The notes under the pieces: model-generated
What the model was told of the DNA's origin: nothing
Databases searched by the model: none
The model's input: only the letters and a program-made list of their open reading frames with translations
Program-made: the position numbers and the translations under genes
NCBI GenBank assembly: GCA_048939995.1
Contig: JBHLOY010000002.1
Span: 288,001-352,000, forward strand
DNA: 64,000 bases
Direction of reading: 5' to 3'
DNA from: Promethearchaeota archaeon
GTDB lineage: Archaea > Asgardarchaeota > Lokiarchaeia > Sigyniarchaeales > SOKP01
In this document: positions 37,235-43,690 of the stretch, in pieces
Layout of the letters: each line of letters begins with the position of its first letter
Position numbering within the stretch: position 1 is the first letter of the stretch

Positions 37235-38080
37235 ATGAAGATGGAAGAATTTATTAGATGTTTAAATTGTGGAAAAAAATTAGGATCTAAATCTGGGAAA
37301 ATTCATAATCAATGTACAGAATGCATGTTAAGATTAGATTTCAGATCAGAAGATATAAATCATAAAGATATAGATGAAAATCTGCAAAAAATTTTGGATT
37401 TCTTTATTTCCGATGTAAATGCCGCCTTTAATAAGGATCCTGCAGCTAATACATTACTAGAAGTATTAACAAGCTATCCTGGAATCAAGGCCATTTTATT
37501 GCATCGCATAGCGCATTTTTTCTGGAAAATTAAAATGCCTTTTGTACCAAGATATATTTCGGAAATTTCTCGAGATCTTAGTGGAATCGAAATTCACCCA
37601 GGAGCAGAAATCGGAAGTGATTTCTTTATAGACCATGGGGGGAGTGTAGTCATCGGAGAGACTTCTGTAATTGGCGATAATGTTACAATTTACGCAGGTG
37701 TAGTCTTAGGGGGTACTAACTTAGAGAAAACTAAACGACATCCGTCCATAGGCGATAATGTAGTTATAGGGTCAGGAGCAAAAATTTTAGGTCCTATTAA
37801 TATAGGAAATAATGTTAGAATAGGAGCAAATTCAGTTGTTGTAGAAGATGTTCCACCAAATTGCGTAGTAGTTGGAGTACCCGGTAAAATTGTCTCAAAA
37901 AAAGGCGAAAAAATTGAAAAAATAGATTTAAGACATGGAGATTTACCCGATCCCATTTCTATTGCACTCTCGAGTTTGGAAAAAAGAATTAAGCAATTAG
38001 AGGGTAAACTTTCTATAAGCCCCGACCATAAGAAGGAAGATATAGAAATTTTTTACGGAAATTATGGTGGAGGAATTTAG
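37235..38080 (+). CDS. cysE: Serine O-acetyltransferase with an N-terminal Zn-ribbon
   Basis: DPAA, YPGIKA..HRIAH, GIEIHPGAEIG..FFIDHG, KRHPSIGD, VGVPG. Confidence 0.93.
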   Translation: MKMEEFIRCLNCGKKLGSKSGKIHNQCTECMLRLDFRSEDINHKDIDENLQKILDFFISDVNAAFNKDPAANTLLEVLTSYPGIKAILLHRIAHFFWKIKMPFVPRYISEISRDLSGIEIHPGAEIGSDFFIDHGGSVVIGETSVIGDNVTIYAGVVLGGTNLEKTKRHPSIGDNVVIGSGAKILGPINIGNNVRIGANSVVVEDVPPNCVVVGVPGKIVSKKGEKIEKIDLRHGDLPDPISIALSSLEKRIKQLEGKLSISPDHKKEDIEIFYGNYGGGI

Positions 38081-38097
38081 TATTCACATATTAAAAG

Positions 38098-39042
38098 GTG
38101 ATTAAAATAGGTAGAATATATCAAAATATAATTGAAACTATAGGAAATACACCACTAGTTAAATTAAACAAAATAGTTGAAGAAATATCTCCCAAACCAA
38201 ATATTTATGCTAAATTAGAATATTTTAATCCGGGAGGTAGTGTTAAGGATAGGATCGGAATGGCCATGATTGAAACTGCTGAGGATAATGATTTAATTAA
38301 TAAAGATAATATAATTGTAGAGCCTACGTCTGGAAACACTGGTATTGGGTTAGCATTAATCTGTGCTGCTAAAGGATATAAATTAATTTTAACTATGCCA
38401 GAGAGTGTCTCAATCGAACGAAGGAAGATCTTAAAAGCCTACGGAGCACAAGTAATTTTGACTTCCAAAGAAAGCGGAATGAAAGGAGCTATATTAAAAG
38501 CCGAAGAACTTGCAAAAGAAAAAGACATGGTTTTTATACCTCAGCAATTTAAAAATTTAGCAAATCCAGAAATTCATAGAAGAACCACAGCAAAAGAAAT
38601 TTTTAATGATTTGGATGGAAGAGTTGATGCATTTGTAGCGGGGGTAGGTACTGGAGGAACTATTACCGGAGTAGGTGAAATTCTTAAAAAAACAGTAGGA
38701 GCTCGTCTAAAGGTATATGCTGTTGAACCCAAAGATTCTCCTGTTTTATCCGGAGGATCTCCAGGACCACATAAAATCCAAGGAATTGGAGCCGGGTTTG
38801 TTCCAGAAGTATTAAATACACAAATTTATGATAGAATAATACAAGTTGAATATGAAGATGCAATAATAACAGCTAGAAAATTAGCTAAATTGGAAGGAAT
38901 ATTCGCTGGAATAAGTTCAGGAGCAATCGCCTGGGCAGCAATCTACGATATATCTAAAGAGTTTAGTGTAGGAGAAAATGTTGTTTTTGTAGTTTGTGAT
39001 ACTGGAGAACGCTATTTATCTACTGAATTATATGATATCTAA
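38098..39042 (+). CDS. cysK: Cysteine synthase A (O-acetylserine sulfhydrylase)
   Basis: KLEYFNPGGSVKDRI, EPTSGNTGIGLA, GVGTGGT, HKIQGIGAGF, DTGERYLST. Confidence 0.96.
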   Translation: MIKIGRIYQNIIETIGNTPLVKLNKIVEEISPKPNIYAKLEYFNPGGSVKDRIGMAMIETAEDNDLINKDNIIVEPTSGNTGIGLALICAAKGYKLILTMPESVSIERRKILKAYGAQVILTSKESGMKGAILKAEELAKEKDMVFIPQQFKNLANPEIHRRTTAKEIFNDLDGRVDAFVAGVGTGGTITGVGEILKKTVGARLKVYAVEPKDSPVLSGGSPGPHKIQGIGAGFVPEVLNTQIYDRIIQVEYEDAIITARKLAKLEGIFAGISSGAIAWAAIYDISKEFSVGENVVFVVCDTGERYLSTELYDI

Positions 39043-39047
39043 TTGAA

Positions 39048-39947
39048 TCAGGTACTTAGAGGGAGTACACTTGTTGTTAGAATCTCAGTAACTTTTTTCC
39101 AAAGTTCCTTAAAGTCAGGTTTCTTTTTGCCATTTATCCTTCTTGAAATTTCATGGAATAATGCTTTTATCTTTAAAGAATGAAAATAACTAATATTTGG
39201 CGCAATTATGGCTAGCATATATTGTTTTTGACCAAATCTTTCATTTTCTGCTGGAAAAGAATCAAAGTAAGCATAACCAGACATTTTAATATTCTCAAGA
39301 TTTAAAAGTATTCCTTCAGCATTAGTTATTTTACCATGTCCATATATAAATAATGTTGCTTGAAAAAGCTGAGTTCCAACGTCTTCGATAGATACGGGGA
39401 GATTAATAGTTGAGGGATAATGATCATCTAGTTTTGGACCATATTTATCATCCCAGAACATTGAGAGTAAAAATATCTTCTCTTGGTCCTCCATTGAAAT
39501 TGAAGGTTGAACATTTATATCTAGAGAAGACAAGACTGCTTCCATCTTTTCTTTAATAACCTGTCTTTTTTTATTCCTAGTAATCTTACCAGAAATAACA
39601 GCTAATAAATCATCTTCATTAAAAGGTTTTGTTAAATAATCATCTATCCCCAATAATTTACCAAAACGAATATCTTCTGGAGATGATTTTGCTGTAAGGA
39701 ATATGAAAGGAATATGATTCAGAGCTGGATTTTTAGAAATTTCAGTAAAGAATTCATATCCATCTACTTCGGGCATCATAATATCACTAATAATAACCTC
39801 GGGGAGAATATCTGATTGCGAAATGAGATCAAGGGCTTCCTTTCCATTTTTTGCAGATAAAACTCGATATTTATTTGCCTCTAAATTCAATTTAATTGCA
39901 TAAAGGAGATCCACATTATCCTCTACAATCATAATTAGAGGTTTCAT
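39048..39947 (-). CDS. Response regulator: REC domain plus C-terminal longin/uDENN-like domain
   Basis: REC motifs IVED, SD55IMMP, FLTA and K107PF. C-terminus has FLLSMFWDDKYGPKLDDHYP (longin/uDENN F/W-D-x-x-x-G-P...YP start) and ENERFGQKQYMLAIIA. Confidence 0.85.
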   Translation of the reverse strand: MKPLIMIVEDNVDLLYAIKLNLEANKYRVLSAKNGKEALDLISQSDILPEVIISDIMMPEVDGYEFFTEISKNPALNHIPFIFLTAKSSPEDIRFGKLLGIDDYLTKPFNEDDLLAVISGKITRNKKRQVIKEKMEAVLSSLDINVQPSISMEDQEKIFLLSMFWDDKYGPKLDDHYPSTINLPVSIEDVGTQLFQATLFIYGHGKITNAEGILLNLENIKMSGYAYFDSFPAENERFGQKQYMLAIIAPNISYFHSLKIKALFHEISRRINGKKKPDFKELWKKVTEILTTSVLPLST

Positions 39948-40023: not shown

Positions 40024-42708
40024 TCATGGAATTCTTGGAAAGAAAATGGAAAATGTTGTTCCATTTCCATATTCGCTTTCTACATATACTTTTCCTTGAT
40101 GAAGTTGGATCAATTCTTTTGCTATTGTTAATCCAAGCCCTGTTCCTGGGATATCTTTGACTGATCTGGCTCGATAAAACCTATTAAAAATAAAAGGAAG
40201 GTCTTCTTCATGAATTCCCATTCCATAATCTATAATTTGAAATAAAATTCCATCAATCCCTTCAGGATTAAATTGTCCAGTGTAGTGATCAACAGCTTTA
40301 ATTATTATTTTGGATTCCTTTTCAGAGTATTTCCAGGCATTATCTATAAATATTCTGAAAATCTGCTTAATATGATTGAGATCCCCATTTATCCGTAGAT
40401 CTTTTTTTAAATCTAATTCAACTATAATATTTTTCGATTTAATGTTTAGATCCATTAAATCAAGAACTTCGGAGATAAGCTCAAAAGGAGAATAAACCTC
40501 TAAATTTAAGAGCATTTTTTTCTCATCTATCCTTGATAACATTAAAAGATCATTTACTAATTCATTAAGCAAATTAACATTTCTCATAATTCCCCGCATC
40601 AAATTATATTCTTGCTCATTTGTTATATTTTCACGATATTTATTTAAGTAATTTAATGACATCAATAAAACAGCTATAGGATTCCGCAATTCATGCGAGA
40701 CAGTAGATACAAATTGTTCTAACTTTTGCTCAGCTTGTTTATGCTCAATAAAACGGCTAATAATTTCAGCAATCGTACGGGTTAACTCCTCTTCTTCTTT
40801 TAAAAAGAGTGAGTTATTATCATGTAAATAAATTTCAATTGAACCTAAATTTTTATCATATACTTTAATATCTGCCTTGATATTCCATTGAGTGAGCATA
40901 AAATTTTTAGCTGTAAATTCGTTTCCATCAAATAAGATCCTTGCATATGTCTTTTCTGGAAACTGAAACGCTGAGGGGAGAATTTCTAGAATTTCATTGA
41001 ATAGATCAGATTCTTCTTTTTCAAATTCTGAAGCAAAACCTGAAGTTTGATATAAGCATGTAAACTCTTTTACTCTTTCTTTCAATTCACTTTCGCTTTT
41101 AGTTAAAGCTCTTTCGAATTTTTTTCGTAACGTAATATTTGAGATAATTCCATCATATCGAATAATATTGCCTTTTTCATCCTCAATTGGGACTCCTTGA
41201 TCTCTTAAATAAAATACTTCACCTGTATCATTGTGAACAACCCGATATTCTAAATCATATCCTATTTTTAAAGAAATATTTTCATGAATTTGATTCTTGA
41301 TTTTATCTCGATCCTCAGGATGGATAACTTTTAACCACAGATTCTCATCATCATAATGCTCTTTTGGTGTTATACCCGTCCAGACTTTCCATAAGTCTGA
41401 GATAAAGATTACAGTTCTTTTTTCATTTGATAAAGTTGAATAAATTACGTTAGGTATATTCTCAACTAAGTTACGATACTTTTTTTCGCTATTTATAAGG
41501 GCCAATTCTGCTTTTTTATGTTCTGTTATATCTGATATAAAAGCGATTGCACCATCGTATTCTAGTTTTTCATCAAGAAGAGGTGCTGTTTCTAATCTAG
41601 TATAGACTTTGTTACCATTTTTATGTAAAAATTCAAATTCATGCTGTTCTTTAATGCCTTCCTCCCTCCTTTTCAAATATTTCTTAGACTTTTCAACATT
41701 TTCCTTATCCATAAAAGCAAATAGATGTTTTCCTATCATTTCTTGTTCAGAGTAACCCAAAATTTCCGTCATTCTTTTATTAACGTAAGTAGTATATGCA
41801 TTTTTATCGATTGCCCAAATACCTTCATGGGCACTCTCTACAAATAATCTATACTTTTCTTCGCTTTCCTTAATCTTAAGGAAAGAATCTTCAAGGGCAA
41901 TTGTTTTAGAAAGAAGCCTTTTTTCACTTAATTTTAATTTCCGGTATAAAAGATCAATTGGATTTCGCAAACCTATACTAATAATAGCTTTATATAAGAG
42001 GAAAAATGCTGGAATTTTTAAAATGTGACCAATTAAGTTGGAAATATCAAAAGCGGAAATATAGAAAGTAAAAGCTAATTCTGATACAATTGTTAATATT
42101 ATTGAGAATATTAATAAAATAAAAATATTAAAATCGAAAATTAATCGATTCCTATACATTATAAGAAGTGTTATTACCAAAATAATATCAATAATATACT
42201 CACTAATTACTTTAAACGGGGTTAATCCACTCCCTTCAATGTAACAAACTGGAAATAACCTTAAAAAAATTAATATAATTAATATTGCGGTATAAAAGGT
42301 AAATCCAAGCAGATAATACTTCGCATTGACTTTTTTATTTAGTACTAAAGAAGCTATTAAAAGCGATATTGATTGCAAATACCGAGCTGCTATCCATAAT
42401 TGAGCAGGAAGATTAGTATCATATCCAATAAAAATATTCATCCCAGGATAGGCTAATGTGTGGATTAAATCAATAAATCCTATAAAAATAAAAGATAGTC
42501 CAACAACTAAAAAGAAATTGTTATCAATATGTTCCCTGGAATTATATAAAATTGCAAAGATAGTGACCTTTATTACGATGCTAAACAATTCAGCAAGATT
42601 ATGAAAAAGCAAATAACTGTAAAAATTTGTTAAATATATTAAAATAAGTATTAAGACAAAAATGTAATAATCAATGTGATAATTCTTCCTTGTTTGTTGA
42701 TCACTCAT
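40024..42708 (-). CDS. Membrane sensor histidine kinase (MASE3-PAS-PAS-HisKA-HATPase)
   Basis: MASE3 signature (YLLFHNLAELFSI, DLIHTLAYPGM, NLPAQLWIAAR), two PAS domains, SHELRNP, DNAWKY, DYGMG, GTGLGL. Confidence 0.92.
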   Translation of the reverse strand: MSDQQTRKNYHIDYYIFVLILILIYLTNFYSYLLFHNLAELFSIVIKVTIFAILYNSREHIDNNFFLVVGLSFIFIGFIDLIHTLAYPGMNIFIGYDTNLPAQLWIAARYLQSISLLIASLVLNKKVNAKYYLLGFTFYTAILIILIFLRLFPVCYIEGSGLTPFKVISEYIIDIILVITLLIMYRNRLIFDFNIFILLIFSIILTIVSELAFTFYISAFDISNLIGHILKIPAFFLLYKAIISIGLRNPIDLLYRKLKLSEKRLLSKTIALEDSFLKIKESEEKYRLFVESAHEGIWAIDKNAYTTYVNKRMTEILGYSEQEMIGKHLFAFMDKENVEKSKKYLKRREEGIKEQHEFEFLHKNGNKVYTRLETAPLLDEKLEYDGAIAFISDITEHKKAELALINSEKKYRNLVENIPNVIYSTLSNEKRTVIFISDLWKVWTGITPKEHYDDENLWLKVIHPEDRDKIKNQIHENISLKIGYDLEYRVVHNDTGEVFYLRDQGVPIEDEKGNIIRYDGIISNITLRKKFERALTKSESELKERVKEFTCLYQTSGFASEFEKEESDLFNEILEILPSAFQFPEKTYARILFDGNEFTAKNFMLTQWNIKADIKVYDKNLGSIEIYLHDNNSLFLKEEEELTRTIAEIISRFIEHKQAEQKLEQFVSTVSHELRNPIAVLLMSLNYLNKYRENITNEQEYNLMRGIMRNVNLLNELVNDLLMLSRIDEKKMLLNLEVYSPFELISEVLDLMDLNIKSKNIIVELDLKKDLRINGDLNHIKQIFRIFIDNAWKYSEKESKIIIKAVDHYTGQFNPEGIDGILFQIIDYGMGIHEEDLPFIFNRFYRARSVKDIPGTGLGLTIAKELIQLHQGKVYVESEYGNGTTFSIFFPRIP

Positions 42709-42767: not shown

Positions 42768-43307
42768 TTAAATATTTGCTCTTTCGAAAACAGTGTAAAT
42801 TGTTGTTTTATAAATTTCATCCCAAAATTTAGTAGGAATAATTTCTTTTATCTTTGCAATTAATTCTCCTATTAATGTATCAGTAATTTCAGGTTTAACT
42901 TCTTTTAAATTAGGATCACTTTTATGTAAAAAAATTGAAAATTTAATTTGATCTTTCTCACCGCTAATTTTATTAAATATTCTCTTTAAATAATCTAGCG
43001 CTATATCATATCTCTCTGGGTCTTGTATATCTATAACATATATTAGTTTATCAGTCTCTTTAAAATTATCTTTAAAATCTTGCAGATGTTTCATTCTATA
43101 TTGTTCTTGGCCCCCAAAATCCCAAATATTAAAATATTCATCATTTAAAGTCAAATTTGAGGTTTCAATTCCTCGTGTTGGATTAGAAGTTTTTAATGAC
43201 ATTAAGTTCATTCCCTTTAAGCTTAACACTATGGAAGTTTTTCCACCATTATCTAAACCAACAAAAATGATTTTTTTTGCAGTCAAATTTACATTTTTTT
43301 TTGGCAT
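42768..43307 (-). CDS. Small GTPase of Arf/Rag-like type (G domain only)
   Basis: G1 GLDNGGKTS, G2 PTRG, G3 WDFGGQ, IYVID, G4 HKSD, G5-like TTIY. Confidence 0.92.
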   Translation of the reverse strand: MPKKNVNLTAKKIIFVGLDNGGKTSIVLSLKGMNLMSLKTSNPTRGIETSNLTLNDEYFNIWDFGGQEQYRMKHLQDFKDNFKETDKLIYVIDIQDPERYDIALDYLKRIFNKISGEKDQIKFSIFLHKSDPNLKEVKPEITDTLIGELIAKIKEIIPTKFWDEIYKTTIYTVFERANI

Positions 43308-43342: not shown

Positions 43343-43690
43343 TTAGGATAATATATCATACATTTCTCTTTTTTTTCGCTCTAAAAATTCTTTATTATTA
43401 GAGTTTTCGATGAAAGTTTTCATTTGAGATAATAATTTAAAGATATCTTTGTTTTTAATCCCATAATAATTAATATTCTTTTTGTTAATTTCTCTAATAT
43501 CAGATTCTACTAAATTAAATTCAATTAAAGTGTTTAAATGATGAGAAATTGTTGATTGCTTTTTTCCTAATAATTCTTCAATTTGTTTGGAAGTTTTTTG
43601 GTTACCTTTTAATTGTTCTAATATGTTTAAGCGAGTTTCATCACATAGTAGTTTTAAAAATTTAATTAGTTGCAGATTCGTTTCAGACAT
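43343..43690 (-). CDS. ArsR/SmtB-family transcriptional regulator
   Basis: LKLLCDETRLNILEQL...QSTISHHLNTL..LV winged-helix pattern. Confidence 0.88.
   Translation of the reverse strand: MSETNLQLIKFLKLLCDETRLNILEQLKGNQKTSKQIEELLGKKQSTISHHLNTLIEFNLVESDIREINKKNINYYGIKNKDIFKLLSQMKTFIENSNNKEFLERKKREMYDILS

Follow-up and report, generated by a model that had tools for sequence, protein, structure and literature searches.

Does the output domain of an archaeal response regulator retain the catalytic arginine, and with it the GAP chemistry, of the eukaryotic longin proteins folliculin and SMCR8? The question is raised by ORF 39048-39947 in a 64,000-nucleotide stretch of Promethearchaeota DNA, the whole of which we call the window, where an earlier note had described the output domain as a longin and proposed R237 as an arginine finger. 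In the eukaryotic proteins R147 of SMCR8 and R164 of folliculin are proven arginine fingers, and the substitutions F10D in folliculin or W33G/D34K in C9orf72 abolish or nearly abolish GAP activity. The question whether Asgard longins already possess the GAP chemistry known from folliculin, GATOR1 and C9orf72-SMCR8 was raised in 2025. GAP activity has been proposed for Asgard longins with a GP motif and an arginine finger, with ArfR or Rag GTPases as suggested partners (PMC12290439, Traffic 2025), and fusions of Asgard NPRL2-like longins with two-component domains have been described by authors who propose growth control centered on two-component systems (bioRxiv 10.1101/2020.10.19.343400, Fig. 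5c). Neither the protein type nor the proposal of an arginine finger is new to the literature, and a specialist would find the sequence observation unsurprising.

The earlier note covered residues 153-299, which form the output domain, and quoted residues 224-248 from it. The features and neighbors of the protein are collected in Table 1. PF00072 spans residues 5-118, and the acidic pocket, phospho-Asp, Thr/Ser and Lys of a two-component response regulator are all present; among 68 full-length homologues the phospho-Asp D55 is kept in 66 and K107 in 65. A Pfam search matched the residues beyond the receiver to no family. AlphaFold2 placed strands in the longin domain at 159-166, 170-177, 211-217, 222-232 and 240-249 and helices at 187-202, 254-272 and 279-291, with a pLDDT of 82.9 for the domain alone. 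For the whole protein the pLDDT was 87.9 and the pTM 0.53, so that the arrangement of the domains is uncertain. The last longin helix ends 8 residues before the C-terminus, and DENN-type domains are absent. The arginine lies where the earlier note had put it: residue 237 is translated as Arg and falls between strands 222-232 and 240-249, in the beta4-beta5 loop before the last strand.

Table 1 Positions within the window of the receiver-longin regulator, its domains and motifs, and the other genes of the cassette
Feature	Coordinates	Strand	Basis or remark
Response regulator, 299 aa: receiver domain, long helix/linker, longin output domain	39048..39947	-	ORF, Pfam, AlphaFold2
Receiver (REC) domain; E9, D10, D55, T85 and K107 intact	39582..39947	-	PF00072, E 5e-25
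REC helix 5 extension (helix 111-141) and linker; putative signal-transmitting role	39483..39581	-	AlphaFold2
Longin domain of folliculin/SMCR8/NPRL2 type, residues about 156-293; no DENN domain after it	39069..39482	-	Fold searches, AlphaFold2
W165-D166-x3-G170-P171 motif	39435..39455	-	W, G and P each 94% conserved (109 representatives); touches GTPase Q67 in the model
Beta4-beta5 hairpin with arginine loop, residues 222-249	39201..39284	-	Profile alignment, AlphaFold2
Arg237, candidate arginine finger on the folliculin R164 column; codon AGA at 39239-39237	39237..39239	-	Translation, alignment, model
MASE3-PAS-PAS histidine kinase, 894 aa; H, N, G1 and G2 boxes; likely cognate kinase	40024..42708	-	Pfam, synteny
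Rag/Arf-like small GTPase, 179 aa, bare G domain; candidate substrate	42768..43307	-	P-loop, T44, Q67, HKxD, TTI
ArsR-type HTH regulator, first gene of the conserved cassette	43343..43690	-	Pfam, synteny

Structure searches with the output domain returned longins throughout, showing at the level of predicted structure that it has the longin fold. VIA Z scores reached 11.6 both to the Loki longin 8yqg (rmsd 3.5, 137 residues aligned) and to Lst4 (rmsd 2.8, 123 aligned), 11.0-11.2 to folliculin (rmsd 2.9-3.1, 133-137 aligned), about 10 to chains of C9orf72-SMCR8 and GATOR1, and 9.5-10.6 to the longins of DENND1 and TRAPP; the best Foldseek rows were GATOR1/SEA chains (E 5e-4). These scores do not tell catalytic from non-catalytic longins, nor one longin class from another, because the Z values tie and the non-catalytic Lst4 equals folliculin.

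At the sequence level, neither the domain nor the family profile found a longin among PDB chains and Pfam. The protein scored no match to Pfam Folliculin (PF11704, gathering cut-off 23.3 bits), and 3 of 108 family members match that entry weakly, below the cut-off (best E 0.0014). Since there was no direct sequence match, we used a two-step profile bridge. The bridge set consisted of Asgard longins above the Folliculin cut-off, which occur in 51 of 301 genomes and in none of 14 controls; 23 of them were aligned, and D, G-P and R-G are invariant across these. Among PDB chains the resulting profile matched human folliculin best (E 3.6e-5), with the invariant Arg falling on R164 (counted from F143). 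The 108-sequence family profile in turn matched the Asgard Folliculin-type profile with a probability of 96.8 and an E of 2.4e-10, in an alignment that runs gapless from strand 4 through strand 5 and places R237 on the invariant-Arg column, where column confidence is highest. Through this profile chain and its position in the loop R237 aligns with folliculin R164, the equivalence drawn in the earlier note (SMCR8 R147 was not aligned directly), and we regard the two residues as almost certainly equivalent in position. The folliculin motif given in the note was also correct, the chain having D160, A163, R164, G165, F166, R168 and Y170.

The profile alignments that connect R237 to R164 also place G170-P171 on folliculin G15-P16, and W165 is aligned with F10 in a sub-threshold segment, a suggestive correspondence. 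The spacing of W165-D166 and G170-P171 equals that of W33-D34 and G38-P39 in C9orf72 and of F10 and G15-P16 in folliculin, and both the GP motif before beta2 and the aromatic residue five positions earlier are present. We considered whether the WD motif marks only a C9orf72-like partner half of a GAP complex; this idea is weakened, as the catalytic chain of folliculin has the equivalent F10, and for the same reason a single chain that bears both WD and Arg is not in itself proof of a homodimer. The loop of ORF 39048-39947, A-x3-R-F-G against D-x2-A-R-G-F in folliculin, fits the folliculin motif less well than does its own family and is off at two positions: Ala233 takes the place of the Asp that 68% of the family shares with folliculin (D160), and Phe238 that of the Gly that is most frequent in the family (folliculin G165).

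Conservation of the arginine among receiver-longin proteins, on which the earlier proposal leaned, was borne out: R237 is present in all 25 close homologues and in 77 of 109 representatives at 22-51% identity. At the flanking loop positions 234-236 the top residue reaches only 15-23% among the same 109 representatives. All six Arg codons are used at the R237 position across 60 loci, and selection therefore acts on the residue, whose conservation exceeds chance as judged from these sequences. Lys replaces Arg in 5 of the 109, and D229 is conserved at 85% versus 71% for R237. The arginine is absent from 29% of the representatives, which requires at least 5 changes on a 73-sequence tree, mostly on long branches; the Arg column was kept in that tree and long branches meet, so that the 5 changes are approximate, with at least 3 forced by strong branches. 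Members without the arginine keep the phospho-Asp and score a median of 141 bits to the family profile versus 167 for the others. D166 is found in 65 of 77 Arg-bearing versus 16 of 32 Arg-less members, and Asp at position 233 in 60 of 77 versus 14 of 32. The receiver-longin loci L066-L075 form a well-supported clade of paralogues that lack the Arg, mostly have a longer beta4-beta5 loop and have no GTPase nearby; from their sequences they are candidate natural pseudo-GAP controls.

When 301 genomes were searched, the domain profile matched 59 of 68 genomes of the window's family, all 21 of another family and few others, some of the matches in the 21 coming through a weaker 650-aa protein. Those relatives of the receiver-longin that carry a name come from Promethearchaeota and from other Asgard MAGs. 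In family f24 a conserved protein of about 650 aa (G130:C9:190440-190847 and similar) matches the longin profile with an E of about 1e-15.

The receiver-longin gene is the last of a co-oriented run in which an ArsR regulator is followed by a small GTPase, a MASE3-PAS histidine kinase and the receiver-longin, with the kinase gene adjacent to it and the GTPase gene two genes upstream. This order is kept in 11 of 12 related loci with upstream DNA, over GTPase identities down to 41% and with varying downstream genes; in the twelfth, another GTPase gene lies immediately downstream. In a larger set of loci picked by hand, 43 of the 47 Arg-bearing loci with adequate context have a small GTPase at a distance of 5 kb or less, as does 1 of the 10 Arg-less loci; the background is 19% for ORFs of at least 150 aa in the window's genome. 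The neighboring GTPases fall into 8 clusters and several gene orders, and a single subfamily, which makes up one cluster, is retained at 34 loci over identities as low as about 40%. The apparent tracking of Arg loss with loss of the GTPase neighbor was not significant (2-3 independent pairs, p = 1), because 34 of the neighbors belong to one cluster and the Arg-less loci mostly to one clade. No second longin gene was found in the cassette at the loci compared.

Several further features of these loci were recorded. The kinase is 94.6% identical to the product of L003:4835-7525, compared with 78% for the flanking regulator and 73% for the GTPase, a pattern in which a recent swap of the sensor kinase between lineages is possible; kinase length ranges from about 610 to 970 aa across cassettes. 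In another Asgard family (L046, L048-L051) receiver-longin genes, twice as tandem pairs, cluster with at least one kinase and, except at the truncated L049, with up to four different small GTPases. Downstream of the regulator, convergent cysE-cysK-like genes (37235-39042, plus strand) end 5 bases from its stop codon, a flank kept only in close relatives. A promoter and terminator scan with a bacterial model gave hits at chance level.

The cassette GTPase, ORF 42768-43307, matches PF00025 (E 5e-22) and PF04670 (E 1e-19) and has G1-G5 motifs of the Rag/Arf type. Its best PDB matches are the Asgard-type GTP-binding proteins 8yl2 and 8zla/9m28, and it resembles Asgard Rag-like proteins and Arf. 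The protein ends 8 residues after G5, so that helix 5 and a C-terminal roadblock domain are missing, whereas seven other Rag-like proteins of the genome run 117-149 residues past G5. Nearly all orthologues of the cassette GTPase stop at the same place.

We modeled two longin domains, a two-copy stoichiometry that was imposed, together with the GTPase, GTP and Mg. The complex scored 0.74 compared with 0.02 for the best of 3 controls, among which there was no other small GTPase. The score mark used is only roughly applicable here, as alignments and ligands differ from those of the calibration, in which 58 of 80 solved complexes and 2 of 110 mismatched pairs attained it. Across runs at least 79% of contacts agreed, and partner pLDDT was at least 79. 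In the model the first longin copy meets the GTPase through residues 165-172, helix 1 and R237-F238, with G170 contacting Q67 and R237 contacting P43 and N20, at the P-loop and switch I; the second copy contributes residues 167-171, 188-189, 192 and 237. The model may echo the C9orf72-ARF1, folliculin-RagC or GATOR1 complexes, and because these are solved its passing score may show likeness more than binding. We consider it likely that the longin binds a Rag/Arf-type GTPase.

We infer, with good support, that the Asgard longin retains GAP chemistry, and the reading that we favor on balance is a GAP that is under phosphorylation control and probably homodimeric. In it the longin fold, an aromatic-D-x3-GP loop and the Arg that aligns with folliculin R164 would together make up a GAP module of the folliculin/SMCR8/NPRL2 type, whose recurrent gene neighbors are a histidine kinase and a Rag/Arf-like GTPase. 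As modeled, two longin domains would cup one GTPase: one copy would lay its GP loop on the switch-II Gln67, ordering it, and insert R237 between the P-loop and switch I, while the second would hold the other face of the GTPase, as FNIP or C9orf72 does in eukaryotes. R237 would then stabilize the transition state and speed GTP hydrolysis by ORF 42768, and we judge it probable, as a prediction, that R237 is a catalytic finger acting on this neighboring GTPase. Points that weigh against it are the lack of a DENN domain, the two loop positions that differ from folliculin, the repeated loss of the arginine within the family, the indirect route by which the family connects to folliculin, a fold shared with non-catalytic longins, and the missing helix 5 and roadblock tail of the GTPase. 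Upstream of this step, the kinase would phosphorylate D55 and so change the pairing of the receivers, and the long helix 111-141 would relay the change to assemble or free the longin dimer; a membrane sensor could thereby set the nucleotide state of the GTPase, with either sign of regulation. Such control by phosphorylation-driven dimerization is plausible, although we would stop short of expecting it. More tentative is the full version of the scheme, a self-sufficient homodimeric longin GAP in which one chain bears the residues that eukaryotes split over two subunits, histidine-kinase phosphorylation of the fused receiver acts as the switch, and a co-encoded bare Rag/Arf-like GTPase is turned off.

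The longin could instead dock on the GTPase without catalysis, as an effector, inhibitor or scaffold, with R237 reading the nucleotide state or steadying the interface and the signal perhaps running from the GTPase to the regulator. The model shows contact only, folliculin too is found in an inactive complex with Rags, the loop of this protein's clade has moved away from the folliculin motif, and Arg-less paralogues that keep D55 and much of the fold point to non-catalytic uses within the family. We nevertheless consider docking alone unlikely: conservation extends to R237, the GP loop and W165 alike, which come together at the P-loop, switch I and Q67 in a catalytic geometry, and the rare exchange of Arg for Lys is expected of a finger more than of a charge contact.

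R237 might also be a true finger in a GAP that works as a heterodimer with another longin of the genome, or on a substrate other than ORF 42768. The cassette, with no second longin gene, speaks against a heterodimer, as do the combination of WD motif and Arg in a single chain and the crystallization of the Loki longin as a dimer of one protein (8yqg title), and the linkage to one GTPase subfamily speaks against another substrate. All three eukaryotic longin GAP complexes are nonetheless heterodimers, besides several more longins of GP type the genome has about 83 GTPase-like ORFs, no GTPase lies near four of the Arg-bearing loci with full context, and near relatives of a true partner can pass the complex test. 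Weighing these points, we think a heterodimer or a different substrate quite improbable. That the Arg is structural or vestigial, for instance in a salt bridge with the conserved D229 or D233, and the domain a GEF-like or unrelated protein-binding output, is very improbable: GEF activity is the more usual longin role, DENND1 and TRAPP longins are among the fold matches and D229 is more conserved than R237, but the GP motif, reported absent from non-GAP longins, is strongly conserved here, and the Arg lies exactly on the catalytic column and at the nucleotide site in the model.

The preferred reading, a phosphorylation-controlled longin GAP, places the protein beside folliculin-FNIP2 (a RagC/D GAP), C9orf72-SMCR8 (an ARF GAP) and GATOR1 NPRL2-NPRL3 (a RagA/B GAP), with which it shares the longin fold (Z 9.7-11.2, at about 10-15% structural identity). 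It also has the Arg that corresponds to R164, the GP motif and, five residues before it, an aromatic W165 that may correspond to F10 and W33. The modeled two-longin cup on a Rag/Arf-family GTPase resembles that described for C9orf72-SMCR8 with ARF1 and for folliculin-FNIP2 with RagC. Unlike these heterodimers, the receiver-longin is encoded by a single gene, so that it is probably a homodimer; it has no DENN domain, is fused to a phosphorylatable receiver, and its candidate substrate is a bare G domain. It is also like the monomeric DENN GAPs Avl9 and DENND6A, in which the beta4-beta5 Arg is a proposed hallmark of Avl9-class GAPs (bioRxiv 10.64898/2026.01.05.697756), in having a conserved longin beta4-beta5 Arg, a predicted action on an Arf-family GTPase and probably no need of a second gene product. 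Avl9 and DENND6A, however, hold the switch regions with a cDENN subdomain, which the receiver-longin does not have, and a second longin copy would therefore have to fill that role. On the reading preferred here the protein would function as the catalytic longin of folliculin, SMCR8 or NPRL2 does, yet it falls outside that group, because it has no DENN domain and falls below the Pfam cut-off.

Among published Asgard proteins, the longins of PMC12290439 have the same fold, GP motif and Arg arrangement; the portion of that paper available to us treats a heimdallarchaeial reference and 14 related longins and names no receiver fusion or linked substrate, and the receiver-longin family, compared with those longins, lies below the Pfam Folliculin cut-off. 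The fusion of an NPRL2/folliculin-like longin with a two-component domain in bioRxiv 10.1101/2020.10.19.343400 is an Asgard architecture of the same kind as far as its text description goes, and the available part of that preprint is silent on catalytic residues, GAP activity and any linked GTPase. Our literature search, which did not reach most subscription papers, turned up no GAP assay of an Asgard longin.

Where the eukaryotic complexes are large heterodimers, here one conserved cassette names a 146-residue domain, a likely substrate of 179 aa and a kinase. This offers a small GAP candidate together with its likely substrate and kinase, with R237A as a specific point mutant and the Arg-less paralogues as natural negatives. 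If the reading is true, longin GAP catalysis predates eukaryotes and a Rag/Arf-type switch is under two-component control, in a three-protein prokaryotic forerunner of folliculin/GATOR1/C9orf72 control that wires a phosphorelay directly to a small GTPase.

Two other proteins of genome G000 carry related longins. The first, at locus L001 (C17:450477-451889, minus strand), is a 470-aa longin-GTPase fusion with a GP motif, a D-x2-A-R-G loop and a weak Pfam Folliculin match (E 0.007), and is by its sequence a candidate for a GAP and its GTPase on one chain. The second (C31:62110-65478, minus strand) is a protein of 1122 aa with an internal longin of the receiver-longin family type (E 2e-13 to the family profile), in which W329 lies in a WD-x3-G motif and R398 in R-G-G, with GV instead of GP.
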